From a virus, in IMG/VR virus record IMGVR_UViG_3300025174_000005: a stretch of 64,000 bases of DNA. One strand, written 5' to 3'. Below are positions 2 through 63,431 of the stretch, one piece after another. Both the position numbers and the translations under genes were made by a program. Numbering within the stretch: position 1 is the stretch's first letter; the number at the start of each line of letters is the position of its first letter. The notes below the pieces were generated by a model that made no database searches, had not been told where the DNA came from, and saw nothing but the letters and a program-made list of their open reading frames with translations.

Positions 2-3000
2 GGTGAAGTCTGGGTTATATGTTGTTACATTAACTTCTATTGGCATAATACCATAGGTGTTCTCGTATATATCCATATACCAATAAGCCCTACCATATTC
101 ATCTGTGGCCGTATCATTAACTTCATCTATTGTAATAAGTTGTCTATCTGGATCAATAGGATTACCAACCTCTGGACTATCCACGGCAGGTACATATTGC
201 CTAACAAACACCCAATCACTAATGTTCAATTTATAATTAAACTTAATAGATGATGTGTTTGCTTCAATATAATCCTTATTTAATCTTTGAAGCTGTCCGT
301 TAACATATACCATAAGCAACCCCTTACCAGGAACAAATGGAGTTACATTAACTATTTGTTGATTTGCCGCATAGATATAAGTACTGTCATATATCGTATC
401 AGAAACTATATGTGTTTCTATTGTATCATCTTCATTAAGTTCGTAATTAAACATAACAGTTGTGTTATCAACTTCTACATAGTCGGCATTTAAACGCTGC
501 AGTTGTCCGTTAACATACACCATTAATTTCCATGTATCTAATTCAAATGTATTAGATAGGAATATTTCTGTCTGTCCACCCACTACTGTGTGTTTCTCAC
601 GCTTAACATCATCAAGGCGTATTCTTGTATAGATCCAATCTCCTGCATTTAATAGATTAGTAAATTCTATAGTGTTAATATCTAATTCAGTATAATCTCT
701 ATTAATGATTTGTAGTTGGCCATTAACCCATACAAATAATGTATCAGTACCCAATTCATATGGGTGAAAGAGTTTAAGTTTCTTATTGGTTGGATCACTA
801 AGTAAATTATCTGATACTACTTTAATTGGGCTGGGTGATGTAACTGGGGTAGGTAGTCCAACTATAGTTTCTAATACTCTACTTCTCGTGCGTCTAAAGT
901 TAACTACCGCATTAGGTATTGGTGTCCCATTAACATCAAGTAGTTCTACTGTAACTATCGCAACTTGCCTTACGTTTGTTCTAAATGAATTAGGACTAAC
1001 CCTACAGGTTAATTTAGTTGGTATAGCATCTTCGTCTGTAAGATAAACAAATCCATTAGTGTGTGGATTAAACAGAGGGTTTAGTGCTAGATTAGTATTG
1101 TGTAATCCATCCGATGTTTCATGAGTAACTTCAATCCTTGAATAGGACTGACTTAAATTAACTAAGCCTGATTCATAATTTACAATATAACTATCCCTTA
1201 ATCGATAGTTAGCCGTAAAACAAGCTGATGTCGGTATACATTCATAGCTATCTAAGGTAATTATATTATCTATTGCCGATGTATTTACACCATCCAGTGT
1301 AAGAGCTTCTATATCGGTGAACGATAAATACAATTGATTATCTCTGCCATTGCCACATATCTCTTCTGTAAACCATAGTGTTGGATTATAGTTCTCATCA
1401 CAAAAATTAACTTGACGTAGAGGTGTTTTAATGGTATTGCCGCTTGTGTCTATATCTACTAATGATACCAATACTGGAAAGTTATCCTGTAAGTCCTTGG
1501 TAGAGATAGTAAAACTATCTATGTTTTCAAACGTGAGGGTATTGGGTTCTGCAAACATATAAGACTTCTGATCATTGATGTAGTACCACCCACGATTAAG
1601 CATTACCCACCATTTAGCTAGGTAGTCTGTGTAATCTACGTGATAAGCAATATCTTTAACTATGTCTGTGGGGAATTCGTCTAGATGTCTTTTTTTGAGT
1701 AGTTGATCGACACTAACTAATAAATCATCAAAGTCACCTACACCACTATGAAAATCCCTCTTACGACCTATATCTAAATACTTAAAGATATTAATAGGAC
1801 CTACTGGTGGAGACGGAGGTATTACAACACTTGTATCAGCGAGTTCTAAACCTAGTGCGCCGTCATTATCCACTACCACTTCCCAAAAAGAACCATCGGG
1901 ACTAATAAGAAAGTCGCCTATGGATTCTGGCAATACAACTATATCCTCAACGGTTGCTGTAAACAACAATGGTATAAGTAGATTATCTATTGGAAAGCTG
2001 GATAAATCAGGATCTATTGCATTTGGAGTAAAACCTATTGTTTGTACTCGCTCTTTAAGTGAACCCCAGTAGCTCTTATCCCATATAACCTGTCCCCATA
2101 TTAATGGGGAAGCCTGTGTTAGTTCATGAGCAAAGCCCCTAAGCTCACGAGTAGTAGTCCCATCTGCATTTAATAGTGTTGACTTATAGTAATCTTGATC
2201 TGAGAAATCATGTACTGTTATATCTTCACAACTAATATAGCGTATTTCTCTATCTCGTAGTTGTAGGTTATCTGTAAGGGTAATACTGGTTGGGCATGTT
2301 GGTGTAATAGAACATTCATTAGCTGAAGTAGAGGTTGTAGTAACTTCTATTGGATCCCATAGATGTACTGTTACGGCTACATTAGTAGCGTCTACTCGTC
2401 CCAGATTAAGAAGGCTTATGGTTGTTTTTGCTATATGATCTAGACGTAATTCATTTGGATTAAACGCGAGTTTATGTTCGAGATCTAATTGAGGATACGT
2501 AGTATTTACATAAATATCTGCACGAGTAGATATTATAGGCTTAGTTAATAAAGCAATATTACAATGCCGCTCATCTAAATCTACCATTAATCTATCATTG
2601 GCAGATATATATGTGCAAGATATTATTTGATCTTCATCTAAATCGTTATTTAATTCAAATGTGTTATATCCTAATTCAACAGTATTTACCTCAATACCAT
2701 CTACAAAGACACGAAGTGTTCCCTGTATGTAATTGTTATTAGTTCTAAATATGTTTTGTGTTGGTAGTATTCTAATAGGCACATCAACTGGCGTAATATA
2801 AGCTATGTTTATCATCTTATTCATAGAGATAGGTATATAGCTAGTATGAAGTGGTGTTTCTCCGCTATACTCTATATTAAAATTTAACTCCACTGGAGTG
2901 TGTGAGGCTGGCACTAATGGGACTATCCACGTTATGGAGTTGTCTGGATTTAATACTCCACCTGAAGATATATCTTGAACAGTAAGATATTTAAACACTT

Positions 3001-3991
3001 CTATTGGTGTAAAGTTAATATAGATTGGATGCTCATATGGATGATTTATAGTAATTGAGTCTTGAGTGTTAGGCCACTCCGTATGATGTATTAGGAATAG
3101 AGAGTTAGCTAATGCATGCCTTAAGCCAGCTTCCGTAGCATTACGATTAAATAAATAAGCATCGCTTAATCGCTTTTGATATTGTTCGTTAGTCTCTCCA
3201 CTAACACGAGGTTCGCTTAATAGTAATCCTATTTCATCATATTCGTTGAAGATATGATGTCTTACTGGCTTATATGATATAGAATTTATCTTAATATCAG
3301 TGTATGACTTACGAAATACTAGTTGTAAACTACTGGCTCCAAATACCTCTTGCTTGAACGCGATATCGTATGTGGTGTAATGAACTTTAAATTCCTGGTC
3401 TAACGGAATAGAGCCGTCCGTAATAACTATTCTACCACGATACTTGCCGCCAGTTAATATATTACTAATTGTGTATTGCGACGAGGAGAGATATATGTCG
3501 TTAAATGATACCCACTCTACTAGAAGATTATCTGTTAGTATATCTATGCCTATTTGTCTGTCAAGAATTAAAGTAGCTGTGCCAGGAGATGTAAAAGTTT
3601 GTATGCTTGCTTTACCGTAGATAAAATCGTGGAACCGATCTACTACATCTATATCAATTGTATCTGTATTACCAGTTAATGTAGTAATACTGAGTGTGGC
3701 TGCAATAATTACACTATATATAATGTCTAAAGATGTATTTGTGTAATTGGGAAATCTAATATATGGATTACGTACGATCTCCTTAATATCTTGTCTTAAC
3801 TCTTCTTGAGTGAGAGCTATAGCATTTACAAGTTTAATTGCATTGGACGTAATTGTTGAAGGAATAATTATATCAGTAAAGGGAAAGTTCTTACGCGCTG
3901 CCGTAAATGCAGGTAAGGCGCCAATAAGTGCCTGGAGTTCCTTAGATACAGGATATTCTGTAGATGATAATGTGCGAATGTTATGAGGCAT
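2..3991 (-). CDS. Large baseplate wedge / tail-fibre attachment protein (>1330 aa, truncated at left window edge)
   Basis: Missing from the ORF track. ATG at 3991 (MPHNIRTLSS...); the segments I spot-checked are open and the frame appears to run off the edge. Contains the wedge-type motif FNEYDEIGLLLSEPRVSGETNEQYQKRL and repeated VxVNGQLQ..N.DY.E.D modules. Confidence 0.7.
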   Translation of the reverse strand, partial: MPHNIRTLSSTEYPVSKELQALIGALPAFTAARKNFPFTDIIIPSTITSNAIKLVNAIALTQEELRQDIKEIVRNPYIRFPNYTNTSLDIIYSVIIAATLSITTLTGNTDTIDIDVVDRFHDFIYGKASIQTFTSPGTATLILDRQIGIDILTDNLLVEWVSFNDIYLSSSQYTISNILTGGKYRGRIVITDGSIPLDQEFKVHYTTYDIAFKQEVFGASSLQLVFRKSYTDIKINSISYKPVRHHIFNEYDEIGLLLSEPRVSGETNEQYQKRLSDAYLFNRNATEAGLRHALANSLFLIHHTEWPNTQDSITINHPYEHPIYINFTPIEVFKYLTVQDISSGGVLNPDNSITWIVPLVPASHTPVELNFNIEYSGETPLHTSYIPISMNKMINIAYITPVDVPIRILPTQNIFRTNNNYIQGTLRVFVDGIEVNTVELGYNTFELNNDLDEDQIISCTYISANDRLMVDLDERHCNIALLTKPIISTRADIYVNTTYPQLDLEHKLAFNPNELRLDHIAKTTISLLNLGRVDATNVAVTVHLWDPIEVTTTSTSANECSITPTCPTSITLTDNLQLRDREIRYISCEDITVHDFSDQDYYKSTLLNADGTTTRELRGFAHELTQASPLIWGQVIWDKSYWGSLKERVQTIGFTPNAIDPDLSSFPIDNLLIPLLFTATVEDIVVLPESIGDFLISPDGSFWEVVVDNDGALGLELADTSVVIPPSPPVGPINIFKYLDIGRKRDFHSGVGDFDDLLVSVDQLLKKRHLDEFPTDIVKDIAYHVDYTDYLAKWWVMLNRGWYYINDQKSYMFAEPNTLTFENIDSFTISTKDLQDNFPVLVSLVDIDTSGNTIKTPLRQVNFCDENYNPTLWFTEEICGNGRDNQLYLSFTDIEALTLDGVNTSAIDNIITLDSYECIPTSACFTANYRLRDSYIVNYESGLVNLSQSYSRIEVTHETSDGLHNTNLALNPLFNPHTNGFVYLTDEDAIPTKLTCRVSPNSFRTNVRQVAIVTVELLDVNGTPIPNAVVNFRRTRSRVLETIVGLPTPVTSPSPIKVVSDNLLSDPTNKKLKLFHPYELGTDTLFVWVNGQLQIINRDYTELDINTIEFTNLLNAGDWIYTRIRLDDVKREKHTVVGGQTEIFLSNTFELDTWKLMVYVNGQLQRLNADYVEVDNTTVMFNYELNEDDTIETHIVSDTIYDSTYIYAANQQIVNVTPFVPGKGLLMVYVNGQLQRLNKDYIEANTSSIKFNYKLNISDWVFVRQYVPAVDSPEVGNPIDPDRQLITIDEVNDTATDEYGRAYWYMDIYENTYGIMPIEVNVTTYNPDFT

Positions 3992-6490: not shown

Positions 6491-9400
6491 CTAACATATT
6501 CCAAAAGTACTACACGGATCTACGGTATCTCCACTAAGTCCACTTAATACTTTGTTTGGTCCTAATGCGGCTTCAAAATGAAGATGTGGTTGACCAGGTG
6601 CTCCTGATACCCCTGAGCGAGCTACTACTTGTCCTTTGATAATACGTACTTTTTCACCGCGTCTAATGCGAGCCATAGTGGTTGGATCAAATTCGTAGTT
6701 CTGTAAGTGAGCATATCCAGCAGCAGTGCCATCATCATGATTAATAGCTAACCAGTTTCCATATCCCCTACCACTAGAACCTATCTGAGTACCTAGGGCT
6801 TCTACATATCCATCTGAAATTGCACGTATAGCTGAGCCCTCAGGAACACCTATGTCTATGCCTTGATGAATATGATCTCCTCGGTTAACACCGAAGGAGC
6901 TAGTGGTGGGTCCATTGCCTGGACGCACATACTGACCAGACTTAACGGGTACGGGTTTAGACGTATCAGCGGGTTGTTTAGATGTAGATGGAGGCAATGA
7001 TTTAGTACCTCCTCGCGCACCCTGAGGAGCCAACTCCTCATTATTGGTATTGGGTTGTTTACCCTTATACTCATCCTCAGCTTGCTTACCAGCTTCTCTT
7101 ATTTGTTTTATTTGTTGAGTAAAGTCATCACTAGATGCATTAGGTATATCATCTCCACCAAGGGTAACTACGGTACCCTGTCTATGACCTGCTATACCTG
7201 CAGTATATTCTCTACCTCTAAAGTTAAGAGGTGCTATAATAAGTGAATATTTACTAGATTGCCAGTATTCTATTGATAAGAATATACGATCAACTACTAG
7301 CCATACTAGTATATCTAGTACTAGAGATACTGCGAATTGTACAGCTGCCACAGGAGCACCAACACCCGTAGCTGCTTCACCTACTGCCGTAGCCTTAAGA
7401 ACCACACTGCCTGCTTTAATTAGCTGTATAATGTTTTTGCCCGCACTAGTTGTTGTCTTACCAGCTTTGATCATCTTACCAAGTGTATTTAGACGCTTGG
7501 CTCTAGCAATAATGTGTATCATGCCTTTGATTTTATTTAGGGCATCGCCGCCAGATTTAGAAAATTTATTAATAAGATCTTTGCCTTTAGATAAGGTAGA
7601 TGTAGTAGGATTTTCAAAACCGTCAACAATGGCTGTTGCTTGAGCTGAGTTAGCAGTTTGGAATAGTTGTTTTGTTTTATTTAATGTATTGCCTGCCTTC
7701 AATAAGGTATTTTTGAGTTTAGCAGCACTATGTGCTAACCATGTAGTAACCGCATTTCTTACAACAACAGTAGCACCTATGGCTGCTATGCCCACTAAAT
7801 AGTTAGCCCATAACCTATCACCTTTTACAGCACAGGCTATATCAGGCGTAATATCTGTAACAAATCCCGTATCAAATCCAAAGTGGTGAGTAACTGCTTT
7901 TATATCAGCAACACCATTCATCTCTACATATGAATCGGCTAAGTAGAATTTATCACATGGGAACGCCCACGGTGTACCCATAACTAATAGGCTTCCTTGA
8001 TACATCTCTCTTGCAGAATCACGAAGTAATGATCTAGTTATCTTGATAGCTTGTCTATGTGCAGAACTGAGTGGCCAACCATTAATGGTATTGTTAATTA
8101 AATCTTTAATTCCACCCCATATACCAGCTGTAAGAAAGTTTAAAAACAAATTAGGTATACCAAATCCAGCATGATCCCAAGGGTCACTAAACTTAGTAGC
8201 TAAGAATCTAGTATCAACTACTTGGTTCTTGCGATATTGAGGGAAGATGGCGCTATCTATTACTTGAGGTTCTATTTTAGGTTCACTGTCAGATACATAC
8301 CATACAGCGTGCATATCTGTATAAACAAGATCATTATTAACTTGTATGTCATTAGCTATAATATTACCCGAGGTAAATATATGAGCTTGAGAAAAGGTTT
8401 TGATTTTATATGCTACAGGTAGCCCAAAACGAGGGTCATTGATGTAAGCAGGATTAGGGTCGGTATTAGATACAGTTGTGCTTCCTGGAGCAGTTTGAGC
8501 ATTCTGAGCTAGTGTTTGGTTAAGCTCTCTACCGCGAGCTATAAGTGATTGCTCCATTAATACTTTTTCTAGTTGTGCACGGACTTCATCTGTATTGGGA
8601 TGATCAATATTACCGTTAAATATGGGTTTATATTTTTGATTTGTTAATTGTTGTAATTCTACTTCCTTTAGGATAATATCATTAGCAAGTAATGTCATTG
8701 CAACATCTGAAATAAGTATGTTTTGAGTGGATTGAATCATACGTAGTGAATTGAGGATGGTCCGAGTTAAATCTTTAATTCTTTGAATATCTTTAACACC
8801 TACTTGACTAGTAGATGTTTGGGTTACATTTATATTGTGTTCTTTATTATTTTGTATGTCCTTAGAGCTAACTCTATGATATGCATACCTAAAGTCATAG
8901 TATCCTTCTCCAAAGAAAAGGGTTGATCTATATTCAAATGGACGTACTTGTAAGTAAAAGTTGGGGCTTGTTTGCATACACAGGGTCATAACATCCCATG
9001 GGTTCTTATTGAATATAAACATATTAAGTTTATGGCCACCTGAACGAAGGAAGTCCTCCTGTGTAGGTGTATCTTCCTTCTTAGCTAATCTGGCTACATC
9101 AGCTGGTGAATATATATTCTCGCCTATTTCACCATAAAAGGCTTTAGGATCTGTGGATGCTAAGTAGAAACCCCTTAGGGGTTCTATTAAATCCATAGTT
9201 GTCCTTCCGAAAAAAGTTAAATTATCAAAGTTAATAGCTACACTTGCTAATATTAGTTGATCTGGTAATGGTATTCCTTTAGCATTTATTCTTTCTAGTG
9301 TTTCTTGCATGGATTGCACTAAAAATCGTTTATTGCTATTTACTTGAGCTTTCATGGCATTCATTATTGGTTCTGGATATACGGGCCTACCGAAATGTAC

Positions 9401-13605: not shown

Positions 13606-16600
13606 TTACCTTTTATGAAGTAGATGTAGTAATTCATCTTCAACTGTTTCTTTGATTTTCTTGCGGTGATCTTGTGATGTGATATGAATATTGGTTGGCA
13701 TTTGAACTTGAGATAGTGATTGACCAACCAATTGATGTAGTTGATCGGGGTCTATATCTCCTCTGTCGCGGGCCCTAATGCGCACTTTATACGCATTACC
13801 TCCCTTACCTGGTACTGTCTCATCCATAATACGTGTTGTGCCACCTACTGATGGACTAGCTGGAGGTGTGTAAGAACCATCGGGCATAGGTGTCATGTCT
13901 GGACCAGGTGCTATCATATCTGGTTTGAGTTCACGTTGACCTAGTTGTAGTGAAGAAGAAAGTAATCCCGCACCTACGACAGCTGTAGCTAAACCACCTA
14001 ATCCCCATCGCGCGGAACGAGGTAAGCGCATAAAAGCATTCTCTATCATATCAATAGCTTTTCCTGGCTTAGGACGAATTGTTTCAGCAGCCTCAGCTAC
14101 TCCAGAGGCTGCATGAGCCCCTACACTACCAGCAACTTCTTCTGTGATATCAGCTGCAGCAGTGAAGCTACCCATAAGATCTTGTAGCTTAGCTCCAGAA
14201 CGTATCTGGCGTAATCTTTCTGACATAGGTAGATGAGCGTATTGTTCTGTTAGATTACCTATTAGAGAACTTGTTTGTTGATAGTGGCTTTCTATTACAC
14301 CTTGTTCTGCGCCATGCTGAATACCTCTATCTAATCTACGTCTCCATAAATCTGCTTCACTAATAATAGTTTTTGCTTTAACTTCTTCTATAGCTGATTC
14401 AGGAGCTATACCTTCTACAAATGCCTGGGCTTGAGCAGAACGCAGTTTCTCATTTAGCTCTTCTGCTGTACCTACCATTTTAAACTTAGCTCCGTGGGTT
14501 TCCATAGACTGTAGGATTAACTCATGCATACCTCCAGTTTCCCCAAGGGGTTTTACTTTAGCATAGTATCCTACTCCACGACTAAGAGCATATAGCTTCT
14601 CTTGATTCTGGCGCATAAGTTCTGCAGACTTCTCAGGTATGGCTGCCCATGGACCTGCTTCAAGTGAAGCACCTGCCGATAAGATCTTTCTACGACCTGG
14701 CTCACTCGTAAGAACGTCCATAATATTCTGGGCTCTAGACGGTGAAGGTATTGCAGTAGCTTGAGGACCTGTTGGTATTGCTGTTATTGGTGTTGTTGTT
14801 ATTGGTGTTGTTGGTATTATTGGTGCTGTTGATGGTGCTGTTGGTAATGCTGTTCGTAGTGCTGTTGATAATGCTGTTGGTAATGCTGTTGATGGTGCTG
14901 TTCGTCGTGCTGATGGTGCTACTGTTGGTGTTGGTATTATTGGTGTTGTGGATTTTATTGTAGATTTTAGATGTGTTGTTGTAATAAACTTTTCTCTAGC
15001 TCTTTGCTGTATACTAGTCATCTGCTTCGCAGCTATATTGTATTGCTCTATACCCACCTGTTCAAATGCTGCAGACTGAGCACTCATTATATCATGTAGT
15101 ACGGCTACGTCTCTGGCTGCATACTGGTATCGTTGTTTTGATAGCCTACCACCCCACTTAGATTTTTGTGCTTCTTTAGGCAAGGAAATGTTTAAATATT
15201 TAGACGCAAGATATCCTAGGTTAGATTTACCATACTTAGTTTGACTAAGAACCTGCTCTGCCACCATAGGATCGTATATCTGCCCACCGATTTTATATCC
15301 TTCGCCTAATAAAGCTTTGATATCAAATGGAGCATTTTGTATTATTTTAGGTCTAGAACTAGCGAGGAACTCAGTTAAAATAGATCTACCCTTTTTAGGT
15401 AGTTTAAGGAGATCTACAATACCAACAGGTCCGCCCTCAGCTGAAAGCTGAAGCAATCTAACTCTCTCTATTGCTTCAGAAAATGCTGTTGTTTCTGTAT
15501 CTAATGCAATATGACCAGATGATGGTAGACTCTTAAGGAATTCTTGTAACCCCTTAGCTGTAGTAATACGCTTGTATTGAACTGACTTAGGCTGTAATAC
15601 TTGTTGAGGCATTGGCCCAACAAAAGGTTTAGCATAGGATTCAAGAGGGTTTGTAGGTTGACTGGGTAAATTTACAATGTCTTTGGGTGATTTACCACTA
15701 GCTAATATTCTCTCATGCCCTACAAATTGCTTAGCTATATCTTCACGCTGTTCAAAAAGAGCTTGCATTTTAGGTGTGCCATATAGCTCACCAGCTTCGC
15801 GATGTTGTTGTATTAGTTGCTCTATGTTGGCTAACTCTTTAGATGCTTGCGATGCTTTAGCACCAAACTCAGATACTGTTTCTATTTCTGACATACCAGA
15901 TCTTATATAATCCTGCCATGCTGCCATTTGTTGAGCAAAATCTAATGTAGTAGATTTTGCTAGCTTGAGATATGCTTTAGATCTATATCCTGGTGCTTGC
16001 GTAGCAGCACGAGTTGCAATTTTCTGTATTACTTTACGAAATTCATCAAACTCCGCAACCTCAGCAGTATGACCCTTAACTAGTTTTAATATGTCTTCAG
16101 AGTGTCTAAATTTCTGATAGGAATATATTGCTTGTGGGTGTGTCTGACGCATGTAGGACTCGAATGCTGTTCCAAATACATCAGCTTCTGATAGTTGTGT
16201 GGGTAGGGCTGTTTCTGCAAGAGGAGATATGGACTTAGGACTAAACTGAAAAACTGTTCCCATACCAGATTGTATTTCCCTTTCTCGTTGAGAAAGGGGT
16301 CGTAAGACATCCATTGCCTCCATCTTTTCACGAGACATCACATTAGCAGAAGCCAATTCTTGTGTTAAATCTCTTTTTGCACCAGCTTCTATTATATTAC
16401 TTGTTTGAGCCAATAAGTTACGATCTACCTTAGGAGAAGATGTAAACTGAGCTAACCACGAACCCATCATCTTAAGAGGACGCTCGTGTATCTCCCAGGC
16501 CATACGCGCCTTACTAGAACCAGTCACTACTGTACGGTACCCCTTAAGAGTTTCCTGTACTTCTTCTCCAAAAGAGGGTAAGATTTTCTCAAAGATATGT

Positions 16601-56494: not shown

Positions 56495-57164
56495 TCTTCG
56501 GAGCGGTAGAGGCTTGTTTAGCTCTACCGCTCCCCTTTTTCCTCCCAACAGGGGTGCTTCGCACCCCCCTCCCTACTTCCTCTTACCTCAAGCCTTCGGC
56601 TCCCCTTGTCTATTCCTATTCCAACCTACCCTTATCTACTACGCCTTCGGCGCCCAACGTTGATAATACAACATCCGTTTGAAAAACCACATCCAATAGC
56701 CACGCCAGTTTTTGACCACGTAGCAGAGCCATTTTTTGCCTGTCCTTTAGATGTCGTTCCCTGTAGCTGAGGTAGTCTCAAGTCAATGGTAGAGCCATTC
56801 TTAAAAACCACCTTATTGGTACTCATCTCTCAAAAACAAATGGCTTTAATCCAGGGTTTTCTTTCAAGGCTTATATAGGGAGTTATTTTATGCCTCATAT
56901 ATAACCCTTAAAGAACCTCTTAGTGCTCCCATCAGGGGCCTTCGGCCCCTCTTCCCTATCCAACTTAACCTTATAGTATAAGTTGATAGCCTATACATGA
57001 GGATACTATTCCCCCCCACTAACCTTGATGTTGTAATAATAGTGTCCCGACCAGAGGGGCTAAACCCCCTCTGCTCTCCAGCTACAACACCTAAAAGAGG
57101 GAGGGGAGGTGCCACCATCAACTCGCCTCCTCGAGCCCCCCTCTTTAGCTTCCCTCTGTCTCAT

Positions 57165-57406
57165 GCCTCTTTCTTCCCCTTACTTCTCCTCATCTCTTTA
57201 CCTCTTTCTTTTAGTCAGCAGCTGCCTGCTGCCTTAAAAAGCAAAGCACATGGGGCAGACATTGTCAAGACAAACAGCGTATCTTGACAATTCAGTTCCT
57301 TGTCTGCCCCATGTGCACCTACAATATCCAAGGCAGCAGGCATCTAGCTGCTGCCAAAAGGAGGTAAAAAAATGAGCTTTATAGAAGTTAAAGGGAAAAA
57401 AGAAGC
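57165..57406. repeat. Large imperfect inverted repeat (mirror-image RBS/start units) around a core palindrome
   Basis: Arms 57165-57235 and 57330-57406 align; inner 16-bp perfect IR at 57246-57261/57301-57316; core TTGTCAAGA-N11-TCTTGACAA at 57262-57290. Confidence 0.8.
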
Positions 57407-57737
57407 GAGCCTTATCGGGCTCGCTAAGGGTTTATTGGCTCGCCCTTTGGGCGAGCTAATAGAAAGATTTAATGCTGAGAAAGGGAGCGTAAGCTCTCCT
57501 GTAATTATTACAGGAGAGCTGGCTGAGATCTTTGATCTCAGCCCAGATGCGTGCGTCTGGACTGGGATCGGACTTGGTCCCAGGGACACGGGGAACCCGT
57601 CCCCGTGGATTACAATAAAGGACGGTGAAGAGTTCAAACTCTACACCGTCCAGTTTGGACGGTACGGAGGAGCTCGCGTGAGTGAGCTCCTCCAGGAGCC
57701 TAAAAAGGCTCCTGGAAAAATCAAGCCTAGTTTCTAG
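57372..57737 (+). CDS. Hypothetical early protein
   Basis: AAAAGGAGGT RBS; GC-richer codons; followed by two hairpins. Confidence 0.7.
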   Translation: MSFIEVKGKKEASLIGLAKGLLARPLGELIERFNAEKGSVSSPVIITGELAEIFDLSPDACVWTGIGLGPRDTGNPSPWITIKDGEEFKLYTVQFGRYGGARVSELLQEPKKAPGKIKPSF

Positions 57738-57746
57738 GCTTGATTT

Positions 57747-57774
57747 AGCCGAGGGCATTAGCCCTCGGCTTTTT
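57747..57774 (+). terminator. Intrinsic terminator
   Basis: AGCCGAGGGC-ATTA-GCCCTCGGCT followed by a T run; an A13 tract follows at 57780-57792. Confidence 0.8.
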
Positions 57775-57807
57775 AATTCAAAAAAAAAAAAAGAAAGAAG
57801 GCGTAAA

Positions 57808-57844
57808 GTTTCAATCCCTTACTGATCAGGTCTCATTTTTCTAC
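57808..57844. CRISPR. Solitary CRISPR-type repeat unit 1 (not an array)
   Basis: GTTTCAATCCCTTACTGATCAGGTCTCATTTTTCTAC, 37 bp. The reverse complement ends in GGGATTGAAAC, the canonical 8-nt crRNA handle ATTGAAAC. Confidence 0.7.
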
Positions 57845-58038
57845 TTTTTCTACGGAAGATGAGAGTGGGCGGGTAGGATATCTACCACCTGCCCTTTTCT
57901 GTTCGTGGGGAAGATAAGTCTGTGGATGACAGGGTGTTTTGCATACGGTGTGCAAGCATCCTGTTATGTATCTTGGTAAGACCACCTAAGTTTGTATTGT
58001 TTAGGTGGATATTATGGATAAAGAAAGGAAGTGTAAAT

Positions 58039-58416
58039 ATGTTTATTAATATCAGCAACCACCCATATGGGAAATGGTCAATAGAACAAAGAGAAGGGGT
58101 AAAAGGGGATATATTAGATATGCCGTTTCCGCAAGTTGACCCCTCCTTAGACAAGGAGGGGATTAGTAAGTTAGCTATGGATATGATGTATCAGATAGGA
58201 GAGATCCTTGATATTAAGGGGTTATCCCCCTCTCAAGTAATCCTCCATGTAATGGGGGAACAATCGTTATTTTATACTTTAACTCATATGTGTAAAGAGT
58301 TAGGGTATAAAGTAGTAGTATCTACCTCCCGCCGCGAGGCGGTAGAGAAAATATTGACGGATGGTACGGTCGAAAAGACCGCCATCTTTAAATTTATTCA
58401 ATTTAGGGAGGTGTAG
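58039..58416 (+). CDS. Csx20-like CRISPR-associated Rossmann/CARF-type protein, putative cyclic oligoadenylate ring nuclease
   Basis: Start set at MFINISNHP (GAAAGGAAG RBS). N-terminal S-N-H-P..W..EQ, DMPFP.VDP, HVMGE, and C-terminal STSRREAVE....DGTVEKTAIFKFIQFR match the Csx20-type ATTxR..vE..DG.V....F.(H/F)V.FR pattern as I recall it. Confidence 0.7.
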   Translation: MFINISNHPYGKWSIEQREGVKGDILDMPFPQVDPSLDKEGISKLAMDMMYQIGEILDIKGLSPSQVILHVMGEQSLFYTLTHMCKELGYKVVVSTSRREAVEKILTDGTVEKTAIFKFIQFREV

Positions 58417-58420
58417 AAGT

Positions 58421-58642
58421 ATGATAAAAAGCAAAATTAGATATTTTGAAACGGTCTCCGAAGAGGAGATCGTTCGTCACGAGCTCCATCAGAAGCTCGC
58501 TCAGGGGTATGTATTATCCCCTGAAGAACAGGGGATGTTGGAGGAAAGGTTTGATCATCTTCGGCTTCCAGCCGAAGATAAGTTTAATAAGGTGGTTGGT
58601 GCGCTCGAACAGGAGCGCACAAAAAGAAAGGATATGTGGTAA
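58421..58642 (+). CDS. Hypothetical protein (73 aa) in the repeat-flanked cassette
   Basis: GGGAGGTG RBS before MIKSKIRY. Confidence 0.65.
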   Translation: MIKSKIRYFETVSEEEIVRHELHQKLAQGYVLSPEEQGMLEERFDHLRLPAEDKFNKVVGALEQERTKRKDMW

Positions 58643-58646
58643 AACA

Positions 58647-58829
58647 ATGAATTTATATGAAGTTACAATAGTTTATCCTGTAACATTTACGGTAAAAGCA
58701 AATAATTTTTCATCTGCAGAAAGTATTGCTCTTGAATACTCTGATAGAGTATTTGAATCTTCTTCAATATCTCCAGTTCTCTCGTCTATAAACATTTCTG
58801 AAAAAGAAGGGAAGGGTATCAATGAATAA
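58647..58829 (+). CDS. Hypothetical protein (60 aa) in the repeat-flanked cassette
   Basis: MNLYEVTIVYPVTFTVKANNFSSAESIALEY, a common small phage beta-alpha pattern; AAAGGA upstream. Confidence 0.6.
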   Translation: MNLYEVTIVYPVTFTVKANNFSSAESIALEYSDRVFESSSISPVLSSINISEKEGKGINE

Positions 58830-58834
58830 ATTAA

Positions 58835-58871
58835 GTTTCAATCCCTTATTAATCAGGTCTCATTTTTCTAC
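58835..58871. CRISPR. Solitary CRISPR-type repeat unit 2
   Basis: GTTTCAATCCCTTATTAATCAGGTCTCATTTTTCTAC; 35/37 identical to unit 1, same orientation, both intergenic. Confidence 0.7.
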
Positions 58872-58911
58872 TGTTGATGGTGCTGTTAACGGAAGAATAG
58901 GAGGTTAAATC

Positions 58912-59154
58912 ATGAAATGGTTAGTACCTTTATTATTCGTAGTGATGGGTTGGTTGATATTGAAGATAGGAGGTAAAGATGATCCTCTTGGGAAAGGGAT
59001 AGGAATATTTATGTTAATAGTGGGATGTATTATGTTTGGGTGGATTATTTGCCCCCACCTAGTACTTCTAGTACTAGGTATACTGATAATAGCGGGTATG
59101 TATAAAGCGATTCAAAATATATTAGGTTCTGTTTCAAGAAAGGGTGGTGTATAA
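58912..59154 (+). CDS. Small multi-TM membrane protein
   Basis: GGAGG RBS; three hydrophobic segments. Confidence 0.7.
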   Translation: MKWLVPLLFVVMGWLILKIGGKDDPLGKGIGIFMLIVGCIMFGWIICPHLVLLVLGILIIAGMYKAIQNILGSVSRKGGV

Positions 59155-59661: not shown

Positions 59662-59944
59662 CACGGATATAAGATTACATGATGGAGAACTTCAATCCCT
59701 ACTATTTCGTTGGTTTAATATCAAAGAAGAAGACAGATATTCCACCAACTTCTATATTAGTTTTTCACCTGTCTTTGCTGGTGGTTTAAGTGCATTAAAT
59801 AGTTGTGTTAAAAATACCGAACTATGTTTTAACGCACCCAATAAGGACGAACCATCATGGGCTAATGGTGTACAATTGGAGTTTCAAATATATAAAGATT
59901 TCGAAGTGAAAGTACATAAGCTTGGGAAGGGAAAGAGTAAGTAA
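59654..59944 (+). CDS. Hypothetical protein
   Basis: Overlaps the previous gene; AAAGGGAAG RBS. Confidence 0.55.
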   Translation: MINTDIRLHDGELQSLLFRWFNIKEEDRYSTNFYISFSPVFAGGLSALNSCVKNTELCFNAPNKDEPSWANGVQLEFQIYKDFEVKVHKLGKGKSK

Positions 59945-59976
59945 GTTTCAATACGCTATGGATATGAAAGGAAAAG

Positions 59977-60589: not shown

Positions 60590-61459
60590 ATGCTATCTGA
60601 ACCATATAAGGGGCCTACGGGTTCAGGAACAGACGAATTAGGTATTGTGTATTATAGTGCTGTTGATGATGCTGTTAGTAGTGCTGTTGGTAGTGCTGTT
60701 GATGATGCTGTTAGTAGTGCTGTTGGGATAGCTGTTGATAATGCTGTTCGTAGAGCTGTTCGTAATGCTGTTGATAATGCTGTTGATAATGCTGTTCGTG
60801 GTGCTGTTAGTGATGTTGTTAGTGATGTTGTTGATAGTACTGTTGGTGATGCTGTTGGTGGTGCTATTGGTAATGCTGTTCGTCGTGCTGTTAGTAATGC
60901 TGTTGGTAATGCTGTTGGGATAGCTGTTGATGATGCTGTTAGTAGTACTGTTGGTGATGCTGTTGGTAATGCTGTTGGTAATGCTGTTGATAATGCTGTT
61001 AGTAGTGCTGTTGGGATAGCTGTTGATAATGCTGTTGGTAGTGCTGTTTTTAATGCTGTTGGTAATGCTGTTGGTAGGGCTGTTGGTAGTGCTGTTGATA
61101 ATGCTGTTGGTAGTGCTGTTTTTAATGCTGTTGGGATAGCTGTTGATGATGCTGTTCGTAGAGCTGTTCGTAATGCTGTTGATAATGCTGTTCGTGGTGC
61201 TGTTAGTGATGTTGTTAGTGATGTTGTTGATAGTACTGTTGGTGATGCTGTTGGTGGTGCTATTGGTAATGCTGTTCGTCGTGCTGTTAGTAATGCTGTT
61301 GGTAATGCTGTTAATAATGCTGTTAGTATTGCTGTTAGTAATGCTGTTAATGGTGCTGTTAATAGTGCTGTTGATGATGCTGTTCGTAGAGCTGTTGGTC
61401 TAGCTGTTGATAATGCTGTTGGGATAGCTGTTCGTGGTGCTGTTGATGATGCTGTTTAG
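60590..61459 (+). CDS. Protein made almost entirely of AVxx tetrapeptide repeats
   Basis: AAGGAGGTG RBS; 22-aa leader, then about 66 AV(D/G/S/R)(N/D/S/I/G/R) units. Confidence 0.6.
   Translation: MLSEPYKGPTGSGTDELGIVYYSAVDDAVSSAVGSAVDDAVSSAVGIAVDNAVRRAVRNAVDNAVDNAVRGAVSDVVSDVVDSTVGDAVGGAIGNAVRRAVSNAVGNAVGIAVDDAVSSTVGDAVGNAVGNAVDNAVSSAVGIAVDNAVGSAVFNAVGNAVGRAVGSAVDNAVGSAVFNAVGIAVDDAVRRAVRNAVDNAVRGAVSDVVSDVVDSTVGDAVGGAIGNAVRRAVSNAVGNAVNNAVSIAVSNAVNGAVNSAVDDAVRRAVGLAVDNAVGIAVRGAVDDAV
60656..61456 (+). repeat. 12-bp minisatellite GCTGTTNNNNNN with an internal ~165-bp duplication
   Basis: Tandem units; 60743-60916 repeats at 61151-61312, differing by one 12-bp unit. Confidence 0.95.
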
Positions 61460-62153: not shown

Positions 62154-63431
62154 ATGAAGTTAAGAAAAACAATAACGAAATTAACAGACAATGAAAAATC
62201 TCTTATGAAACCATTTGCTGATAAGTGGATTCAAGACACCTTAGCACCCCAAGGAGCTAATAGAGAAAGAGTAGAAAAAGGAATAGTTGACTGCTATAGA
62301 TTTGCAGGACTTGAACCACCCAAACACATAGTATGGGTTAAATCACCAACTCAGTTGGTTGTAGTTGGACCAACAATTGCTTTATTAATTGAATTAAGTA
62401 AAAAGATATCTACAAATAATGATATAAAAAATATTAGTAAGACCATTGGTAAAGCTGTTTTTAATGCTGTTCGTAATACTGTTGATAATACTGTTGATAA
62501 TGCTGTTCGTAATGCTGTTGGTAATGCTGTTGGTAATACTGTTGGTAATACTGTTGGTAATACTGTTGGTAATACTGTTGGTAATACTGTTGGTAGGGCT
62601 GTTCGTAATGCTGTTGATAATGCTGTTGATGATGCTGTTCGTAGAGCTGTTGGTAATGCTGTTGATAATGCTGTTGGTAATGCTGTTGGTAATGCTGTTG
62701 ATAATGCTGTTGGTAATGCTGTTGGTGATGCTGTTCGTAGGGCTATCTTAAATATAATAAGTAGATCTTGGAACAATGTTTTAGGTGGAAAATACTGGTC
62801 AGGATGGTGGTGGAGAGGCACTGCCTGCATTTCTTTTATAAGGGATGTATTGGGTTTGGAACTTTCGCAAGAAATAAGATTGAAAAGCCAGGCTTGGGAA
62901 GACCTGATGTCTGGTGGATGGATGTGGCTACATAGAGAGTTTGCAATATGTGCAGAACCACACAACACTATCTCACGCGATACACGAGATAGGTTACACT
63001 CAGATAATGGTCCAGCTATATCATGGTCAGATCATACTGGCTTGTGGTTCTGGCATGGCATTCAAATAGAACAATATATAATAGAAAATCCAGAAACAAT
63101 CACTGTTTCAAAAGTTATTGAGGAGACGAATGCCGAGATTCGCAGAATAATGCTAGACCGTTATATAGGAGGTCCAGGTAAATTCCTACTTGATGCTAAA
63201 GCTCAAGTATTAGATGAAGATCAAGACAGACATGGTCTTAGAACATTATTCAAATTCGACTTGGAAGGAGATGAGCCACTCGTTATGATACGGGTGCATT
63301 GTGTAAGAAAGGATGGTGTTATTGACACATATTTTCTACGTATTGATCCCAAACATACGACATGTAAGAAAGCAATAGCTTCAACATTTAAAAAGCAACA
63401 AAACAACTATCGGCCGATAGTTGAAAGTTAA
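62154..63431 (+). CDS. DUF6745-like protein with an AVxx repeat tract
   Basis: N-terminal W....P.NRERVE.GI..CY..AGL..P..IVW..SP; C-terminal LHSDNGPAISWSD...WFWHG..I...I...NAEIRRIML. Family recalled, not searched. Confidence 0.7.
   Translation: MKLRKTITKLTDNEKSLMKPFADKWIQDTLAPQGANRERVEKGIVDCYRFAGLEPPKHIVWVKSPTQLVVVGPTIALLIELSKKISTNNDIKNISKTIGKAVFNAVRNTVDNTVDNAVRNAVGNAVGNTVGNTVGNTVGNTVGNTVGRAVRNAVDNAVDDAVRRAVGNAVDNAVGNAVGNAVDNAVGNAVGDAVRRAILNIISRSWNNVLGGKYWSGWWWRGTACISFIRDVLGLELSQEIRLKSQAWEDLMSGGWMWLHREFAICAEPHNTISRDTRDRLHSDNGPAISWSDHTGLWFWHGIQIEQYIIENPETITVSKVIEETNAEIRRIMLDRYIGGPGKFLLDAKAQVLDEDQDRHGLRTLFKFDLEGDEPLVMIRVHCVRKDGVIDTYFLRIDPKHTTCKKAIASTFKKQQNNYRPIVES
62454..62741 (+). repeat. 12-bp minisatellite (G/A)CTGTTNNNNNN
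   Basis: About 24 tandem units encoding AV/TV-(G/D/R)-N. Confidence 0.95.

Follow-up and report, generated by a model that had tools for sequence, protein, structure and literature searches.

Can a tailed phage set a protein and an RNA together against type III CRISPR immunity, or are the CRISPR repeats that border a phage gene for a predicted ring nuclease only traces of recombination? The question is raised by a stretch of 64,000 nucleotides from the IMG/VR virus record IMGVR_UViG_3300025174_000005 (the window), in which two 37-bp direct repeats, R1 and R2, enclose 990 bp (57845-58834) with three plus-strand open reading frames (ORFs) of 125, 73, and 60 amino acids (aa). An initial annotation, made from the sequence alone, had named ORF1 as a Csx20-type gene and the repeats as solitary CRISPR repeats, and its coordinates for the repeats, with three small genes between them, were confirmed by sequence comparison and pattern search. 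In our reading, a large tailed phage here carries a locus directed against type III CRISPR immunity, in which csx20 (ORF1) is the anti-CRISPR (Acr) gene and the two solitary repeats are candidates for RNA anti-CRISPRs (Racr); we place a little more belief than doubt in this reading.

Assignment of ORF1 to the Csx20 family

Profile searches named ORF1 as a Csx20 protein. Residues 1-124 matched positions 1-113/114 of the PADLOC Csx20 profile PDLC01397 (E 1.8e-22, 78 bits), and the family alignment placed the start at the ATG at 58039, not at a GTG further upstream. The NCBIfam model NF040559 CAS_Csx20 was matched with 40 bits (E 4.3e-10) by the C-terminal half only; judged by these profiles, ORF1 is a member of the wider Csx20 family and not an NCBIfam equivalog. 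PF27247 (MJ1673) was the precomputed Pfam label of ORF1 and its relatives, while the local copy of Pfam-A gave nothing for ORF1, ORF2, or ORF3, PHROGs gave nothing, and no DUF1874 Pfam match was found in ORF1 at E≤1.

An exhaustive HMMER search with ORF1 returned 1589 relatives at E≤1e-3. Many were C-terminal fusions on proteins of 450-590 aa, which are probably effector-ring nuclease fusions, and PADLOC holds a CARF_HEPN_CSX20 fusion model. Among the stand-alone close relatives, 72 of 73 matched NCBIfam CAS_Csx20, with a best E of 6.6e-17. All invariant columns of the 73-sequence alignment (W13, Q17, P31, R99, F117, F119, and R123) were kept in ORF1, as were the columns conserved in at least 90% of the sequences (N4, N7, H8, D27, F30, P35, G73, E74, G109, and K113). 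A tandem arrangement of two Csx20 modules was seen in the relatives P0005, P0017, P0064, P0065, and P0071 (258-304 aa).

The AlphaFold2 model of ORF1 built from the family alignment had a five-stranded CARF/SAVED-like fold with a predicted local distance difference test (pLDDT) value of 97.8, and superseded a poor single-sequence model (pLDDT 67). SAVED-CHAT was in the top row of its VIA-align neighbors (Z 8.4, root-mean-square deviation (rmsd) 2.8, 101 aligned), the CARF domain of Csm6 reached Z 6.8, and the ring nucleases Sis0811 and Sso2081 reached Z 6.4 (rmsd 2.9, 98 aligned) and Z 5.6, respectively; as Z values below 8 are common between unrelated folds, the fold match is consistent with the Csx20 family and not decisive. 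A Foldseek search of the model against the Protein Data Bank (PDB) gave no match at E≤0.001, and a profile search of PDB sequences with ORF1 gave nothing meaningful. The model of two ORF1 copies scored 0.75 compared with 0.00 for the best of three controls, with contacts agreeing to at least 97% across runs and a partner pLDDT of at least 90. The 0.75 mark was reached by 20 of the 30 proteins solved as one-chain pairs and by 1 of the 23 solved as single chains, and the modeling thus supports a symmetric homodimer.

According to Hoikkala et al. 2025 (PMC12409355), Csx20 degrades cyclic tetra-adenylate (cA4) in vitro and, when the enzyme is highly concentrated, also cyclic tri-adenylate (cA3), which confirmed the cA4 ring nuclease activity named in the initial annotation. 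The cA4 activity was shown for one Csx20 representative, Csx20 was present in 4 of 28,114 phage genomes, and the related family Csx15 was without nuclease activity and may be a sponge (PMC12409355). The Csx20-type naming of ORF1 was upheld by the full-length PADLOC match, the conserved residues, and the fold matches, and csx20 probably encodes a functional viral ring nuclease or another antagonist of cyclic oligoadenylates.

Among 50,697 deposited phage records, nothing was matched by ORF1 in tblastn at E≤0.01 or by the region in megablast. Homologues 42% identical to ORF1 were found in two IMG/VR viral contigs (L008 and L009), where the gene context was different, and the nearest relatives sit in viral, phage, or phage-like contexts. 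On the contig of a 47%-identical relative (P0008, contig L156), the intergenic motif TTTTTAGGTATAAGTATTTGGAGGTAAT (at 300-360 and 725-775) was located 5' of two successive small genes, and looks like a repeated promoter or ribosome-binding site (RBS) module of a phage early region.

Conservation of the locus in the phage lineage

The 2.1-kb region containing the locus was 100% identical in eight independent metagenome contigs, one of them 173 kb long, and is therefore not an assembly artefact; a ninth contig, which ends early, matched the region over the 1.3 kb of its own length. The same sample series yielded a related phage (L001/L002) that carries the same two anchor genes on either side, for a 121-aa protein and a small membrane protein. 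Between the anchors of L001, ORF2 is followed by csx20, an order reversed relative to the window, and there is neither ORF3 nor a repeat. The csx20 products of the window and L001 shared 76% aa identity, with a dN/dS (ratio of nonsynonymous to synonymous substitution rates) of 0.13 at a saturated dS of 1.39, and were the best conserved of the four shared genes; by these rates csx20 is under long-term purifying selection in the phage lineage. Since L001 has csx20 and ORF2 at the same locus without the repeats, csx20 is an old phage gene and not a recent capture. A blastn search of the 2.1-kb region against L001 gave no match. Unconstrained DNA has thus lost all detectable similarity across this divergence, and the near-perfect repeats must therefore be either a recent gain or under selection.

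The conservation in L001 also marks ORF2 as a real, conserved phage gene. A homologue search with ORF2 recovered ORF2 itself only, and family, fold, and language-model searches gave no lead for ORF2 or ORF3, with sub-threshold look-alikes only in the protein atlas. The G+C content of ORF3 was 0.295, whereas csx20 and ORF2 had values of 0.40-0.45 and the upstream gene a value of 0.50; ORF3, for which the open frame alone speaks, may have been inserted later or may not be a gene. As Acr genes, ORF2 and ORF3 are candidates by position alone.

CRISPR origin of the repeats

R1 and R2 were identical at 35 of 37 positions. Both differences, at positions 15 and 17, were transitions located in the loop, and the handle and the stem were spared. 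The pattern search of the window found exactly two copies of the repeat, and 0 of 100 shuffles gave a match. In an Rfam scan of 1.5 kb against 4227 families, CRISPR-DR8 (RF01321) gave the top two matches, R2 and then R1 (Table 1). Genome-wide regulatory motifs, which the initial annotation had considered as another identity for the repeats, were ruled out by the match to a CRISPR family and by the presence of only two copies in 64 kb, the copies being counted within the window of a phage genome of ~170-180 kb. A third partial repeat at 59939-59959 (81% over 21 nt) and the 10-mer GGATTGAAAC in L008 were judged to be chance matches.

A looser pattern search recovered at least 120 loci with real arrays from many phyla, and 20 more in JGI metagenomes. 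The pattern was built from shared positions and was partly derived from the phage repeat itself; the positions outside it are the sole independent support, and 11 of these 13 agreed in the best arrays. The closest arrays among the matches listed had the form GT[CT]TCAATCCCTTATTCATCAGGTCTCA with a lineage-specific tail, and agreed with R1/R2 at 27 of 28 core positions and at 30-31 of 37 positions overall. In an alignment of 76 distinct repeats, AGACC...GGGATTGA.AC was invariant, and one stem pair covaried between C-G and U-A. R1 and R2 carry the invariant AGACC, GGGATTGA, and AC columns together with the U-A form of the stem pair. With the CRISPR-DR8 match on top and a core shared with arrays beside type III loci, a CRISPR origin of R1 and R2, as first annotated, is very probable on sequence grounds.

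The repeat family in cellular genomes

Arrays of this repeat family (GT[CT]TCAATCCC...GGTCT...) were found in metagenome-assembled genomes of Desulfobacterota, Campylobacterota, Gemmatales, and others, and their spacers are 36-40 nt long. In L060, the array is followed by Cas1, Csm6 (6H and HEPN domains), Csx20, and a RAMP protein. In L047, a Csx1-type CARF protein, Csx20, and Cas1 are located between a lone repeat (position 58) and the array (from 6456), and in L025 the array is adjoined by a Card1-like CARF protein and Csx20. A 416-aa gene between the two arrays of L153 was read by eye as Csm6-like, with a CARF N-terminus and a HEPN-type C-terminus, and the L079 genome, which holds the closest arrays among the matches listed, has Cas1-Card1-Csx20-Cas10 on another contig. 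Judged from these gene neighborhoods, the repeat family is type III-associated, and its loci pair cA4-type effectors with Csx20. The cellular Csx20 proteins beside the family shared only 31-34% identity with ORF1, in the C-terminal half. The direction of csx20 followed the CRISPR RNA (crRNA) sense in all cellular loci examined, whereas in the phage the gene is antisense to the repeats.

Cellular arrays of the family are often split or flanked by gene cassettes of 0.8-2.5 kb, as observed in L079, L153, L123, L068, L143, L145, L148, and L154. The L079 cassette (1574-3213) holds two ORFs read by eye as an antitoxin and a PIN-like toxin, and the L153 cassette (7704-8987) holds the Csm6-like CARF-HEPN gene. 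The first repeat after a cassette gap is degenerate in its first 2-3 nt, with CGC or TCA for GTC.

Orientation and transcription of the repeats

The ATTGAAAC tag at the 3' end of a repeat is the canonical mark of the crRNA sense. The reverse complement of R1 and R2 ends in this 8-nt tag, and the minus-strand reading of R1 ends in ...AAGGGATTGAAAC. Cellular arrays of the family have their degenerate terminal repeats at the GTCTC... end, and the cas genes of the cellular loci are co-oriented with the reverse complement. Because of the tag, the degenerate terminal repeats, and the orientation of the cas genes, the crRNA sense was assigned to the minus strand of the window.

From the folding of its surroundings, R1 looks like it lies between two plus-strand terminators. 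The terminator of the upstream gene is directly followed by an A13 run (57780-57792), and the hairpin beyond R1 looks like the second one: the fold of 57845-57915 had a free energy of -32 kcal/mol with a z-score of -5.1, and 0 of 200 shuffles were as stable. This hairpin (57867-57903) has a U-rich tail and was not called by a simple terminator scan. ORF3 and the membrane-protein gene are separated by 82 nt, which hold R2 and no terminator ahead of it, so that the complement of R2 must be part of the csx20 mRNA. Weak promoter-like sites on the minus strand lie within 250 nt of each repeat.

Proposed mechanism and alternative explanations

By homology, the CARF-like homodimer of the Csx20 family would bind and linearize cA4, and we infer the anti-CRISPR role of ORF1 from this predicted cleavage. 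The loss of cA4 would switch off the cA4-activated effectors of the host type III system, namely Csm6, Csx1, and Card1/Can-type proteins. R1 and R2 would have arrived independently of csx20, once the lineage had parted from its closest sampled relative, or would be held by selection. The role of the repeats, if they are expressed and have one, would most likely be that of Racr-type decoy RNAs made from the minus strand, which could tie up Cas6 and/or the backbone subunits of Csm/Cmr; csx20 and the repeats would in that case form a racr-acr pair. That the repeats do act as such sense-strand, Racr-like RNAs is doubtful. Two other roles, an antisense anti-repeat RNA in the csx20 operon or recombination handles by which accessory cassettes are shuttled between phage and host arrays, are taken together unlikely.

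A number of observations weigh against the pairing of csx20 with repeat RNAs. R1 and R2 are antisense to every neighboring phage gene, all of which are on the plus strand, so that a role as Racr would require promoters on the minus strand that lie within coding sequence or run against it. The sigma-70-like matches on the minus strand are weak, with 9 of 12 positions each (58037->58009, 58889->58862, and 59115->59086), and the 10 promoter-like sites in this A+T-rich region, compared with 5.1 ± 2.2 in shuffles, are a slight enrichment. Both repeats score below the CRISPR-DR8 gathering score of 39. Neither an exact nor a near-exact repeat was found in a search of one genome per species and of IMG/VR, which left no exact host array, and the 1424 spacers from arrays of the repeat family gave no match to the window beyond chance. 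The related phage L001 manages without the repeats. The similarity of R1 and R2 runs ~6 nt past the 37-nt unit, to 43 nt (57806-57848 and 58833-58875, 93%), and because the identity exceeds the unit, internal duplication fits better than two independent array repeats. On the protein side, the 40 bits of ORF1 are below the curated equivalog cut-off of 70 in NF040559, and ORF1 need not share a subgroup with the Csx20 representative that was assayed.

The repeats may instead be footprints or handles of recombination that make no RNA of their own, csx20 still being a ring nuclease, which we regard as a real but minority possibility. The repeats would then have come from recombination of phage DNA with the CRISPR locus of a host, or from internal duplication of one acquired repeat, and as direct repeats would mark the borders of a variable island between two conserved genes, maybe exchanged with repeat-flanked host cassettes. 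Their positions coincide exactly with the two ends of the segment in which the phage departs from L001 and its ORF2-csx20 order; the 43-nt identity, the 9-nt tandem duplication at the end of R1, the deviant G+C content of ORF3, the cassettes that often split cellular arrays of the family, and the lack of a convincing promoter for a sense-strand RNA all agree with such an origin. On the other hand, with dS saturated between the two phages, repeats that keep 35 of 37 positions to each other and 27 of 28 to cellular arrays need a very recent event or selection. Moreover, the substitutions are confined to the loop, sparing handle and stem, and the arrangement is fixed, being identical in all nine contigs from different samples. 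If the plus-strand complement were itself the active RNA, pairing with the repeats of the host pre-crRNA so that Cas6 is blocked or double-strand RNases are engaged, or acting as an anti-tag that signals 'self' to Cas10, no extra promoter would be required; three lines of evidence give the minus strand as the crRNA sense, and the complements of R2 and R1 are contained in the plus-strand mRNA and in read-through transcripts, respectively. Such an anti-repeat RNA is without known precedent, its anti-tag would cover only ~40 nt beside each repeat, its match to the nearest arrays among those listed is imperfect (30-31 of 37), and it is not present in L001, so that we consider it very unlikely.

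It is highly improbable that the whole 990-bp cassette was captured with both repeats out of a CRISPR locus of the host, or that it is a mini-array with a 'giant spacer' that undergoes transcription and processing. Cellular loci do offer models for it, since L047 has Csx1-CARF, Csx20, and Cas1 between a repeat and an array, and L153 a Csm6-like gene between arrays. But L001, at saturated synonymous sites, has csx20 and ORF2 at the same locus in the other order and without repeats, the nearest relatives of ORF1 are in phage or phage-like contexts, and the cellular Csx20 proteins beside the repeat family are only 31-34% identical to it over the C-terminal half. In addition, cellular genes run with the crRNA sense and the phage genes against it, and 36-40-nt spacers of the family compare poorly with 990 nt. 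On the same grounds, together with the dN/dS of csx20, neither the captured host ring nuclease nor the repeat-bounded host piece suggested in the initial annotation was supported. It is also decidedly unlikely that ORF1 is no anti-CRISPR at all and serves as a cyclic-oligonucleotide sponge, as an antagonist of another signaling defense, be it CBASS (cyclic oligonucleotide-based antiphage signaling system) or SAVED-based, or in the regulation of a phage process. Its best structural neighbors include the SAVED domains found in CBASS effectors (Z 6-8.4), the related Csx15 may be a sponge without nuclease activity (PMC12409355), and ORF1 falls below the NCBIfam equivalog cut-off; yet the sequence profiles specifically name Csx20, the cellular relatives are in type III loci adjoining cA4 effectors, and the repeats at the borders belong to a type III-associated family.

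Comparison with known systems

The predicted ORF1 protein shares with the Csx20 ring nucleases (PMC12409355) the family, a length of ~120 aa, the CARF-like five-stranded fold, the predicted homodimer, and the invariant residues. It differs from typical Csx20 in that its branch lies below the NCBIfam cut-off and its nearest relatives are found in phage or phage-like contigs. Whereas cellular Csx20 is set in or beside a type III locus, ORF1 stands amid phage genes with no array in the window. The absence of a type III locus around a viral copy is what is expected of an anti-CRISPR. The job proposed for ORF1, destruction of cA4, resembles that of AcrIII-1/Crn2 (DUF1874) and would disarm type III effectors whatever the spacer; the family and the fold are unrelated, and the likeness would be functional only.

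Camara-Wilpert et al. 2023 (PMC10651486) describe solitary repeat units of viruses as enriched near acr genes, at distances of up to 1 kb. Like these and the Racrs, R1 and R2 lie in intergenic DNA of a virus, are not associated with cas genes, and have a gene of anti-CRISPR type no more than 1 kb away. The SRUFinder rule given there drops matches with other repeats nearby (PMC10651486), and here a second copy is present 1 kb away. The Racrs named as tested in that paper belong to types I-F, I-C, I-E, and V-A (PMC10651486), in contrast to the type III-associated family of R1 and R2, and where a Racr is described as one unit behind a promoter, the locus has two flanking direct repeats, antisense and without a clear promoter. 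As in the mini-CRISPR arrays borne by viruses (Medvedeva et al. 2019, PMC6858448; review PMC11656645), two host-type repeats are present in a viral genome, but the interval is 990 bp of coding DNA instead of a spacer of ~36-40 nt (~30-45 nt in arrays), and no target match was obtained. Compared with CRISPR-DR8 (RF01321) arrays, the repeats agree in length (37 nt), in 27 of the 28 nt at the 3' end of the sense strand, in the 8-nt ATTGAAAC tag, and in the AGACC...GGG stem with its U-A covariant, and differ in the 9 nt at the 5' end (GTAGAAAAA), which are unlike those of all arrays among the matches listed.

Genomic context of the locus

The window is part of a tailed phage genome. The large terminase, portal, and major head protein genes are on the minus strand, up to ~54 kb, and a block of small plus-strand genes starts at ~55 kb and includes the features collected in Table 1. 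The terminase shared only 30-36% identity with those of Moorella phage MTATph1 and Bacillus phage 0305phi8-36, and the same DNA was found in contigs up to ~173-181 kb from many samples. Of the statement in the initial annotation that the window lacks an array and a cas operon, the first part stood, as no CRISPR array was detected in the 64 kb by TRF; for the second, no cas gene was present among the window ORFs scanned, which were not a systematic cas screen. Scans of the window for tRNAs and for Rfam families reaching the gathering score found none.

Table 1. Positions of the repeats, genes, and transcription signals at the csx20 locus (window coordinates).
Feature	Position	Strand	Remarks
Conserved phage gene, 121 aa, left anchor	57372..57737	+	53% identity to the gene at the same position in phage L001
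Intrinsic terminator of the upstream gene	57747..57779	+	10-bp stem with 8 G-C pairs, T run; fold z-score -3.5
Repeat R1	57808..57844	crRNA sense = minus	Rfam CRISPR-DR8, 25.5 bits, E 0.007; core like cellular arrays
Tandem duplication of the R1 end, 9 nt (TTTTTCTAC TTTTTCTAC)	57845..57853		Read from the sequence
Strong hairpin, followed by TTTTCTGTT	57867..57903	+	Putative second terminator
csx20 (ORF1), 125 aa, predicted cA4 ring nuclease	58039..58416	+	Csx20-family profile match
ORF2, 73 aa, conserved phage gene	58421..58642	+	60% identity to the L001 gene upstream of csx20
ORF3, 60 aa	58647..58829	+	G+C 0.295; not in L001
Repeat R2	58835..58871	crRNA sense = minus	Rfam CRISPR-DR8, 29.1 bits, E 0.00065; core 27/28
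Conserved small membrane protein, 80 aa, right anchor	58912..59154	+	54% identity to the gene after csx20 in L001

The 121-aa left-anchor protein had no family match in the Pfam-A, NCBIfam, PADLOC, and PHROGs scans, and the pattern method found no relatives of it in IMG/VR or the JGI metagenomes. The ~870 bp upstream of its gene (56500-57370) are without a convincing ORF and rich in G+C-rich hairpins, with GCCTTCGGC-type loops at 56592, 56643, and 56938. A perfect 16-nt inverted repeat (57246-57261/57301-57316) encloses TTGTCA...TTGACA, and a hairpin, GGCAGCAGG...CTGCTGCC, just 5' of the RBS of the 121-aa gene is common to the related phage L001. This stretch may have a regulatory function, encode small RNAs, or serve as an origin.

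Elsewhere in the window, 12-nt coding repeats in ~66 and ~24 copies (60590-61459 and 62446-62739) encode AVxx-type tetrapeptides in a 289-aa ORF and the large gene that comes next, and a shorter run of 12-nt repeats (14769-14949) is located in a 1242-aa virion protein. In L001 (positions 1-1721) and L002, precomputed Pfam labels marked a ClpB-like AAA+ protein split by an intein with a LAGLIDADG homing endonuclease, adjoining the terminase module.

Implications for phage counter-defense

Few viral ring nucleases are known; AcrIII-1 predominates among them, and Csx20 has been reported in four phage genomes only. The purifying selection on csx20 in a phage lineage of ~170-180 kb, together with the copies in other viral contigs, argues that Csx20 is a recurrent viral counter-defense. 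With csx20 next to two type III-associated repeats, the locus is a concrete and clonable candidate for a type III RNA anti-CRISPR, and offers a natural test case for a possible combination of protein and RNA inhibitors against signaling CRISPR systems. The antisense, flanking layout of the repeats is unusual and could point to another use of them, such as anti-repeat RNA or cassette exchange; if true, either would be a mechanism of counter-defense or gene flow without an earlier description. If the repeats are inert scars, the locus would still be a clear example of recombination between phages and CRISPR loci.

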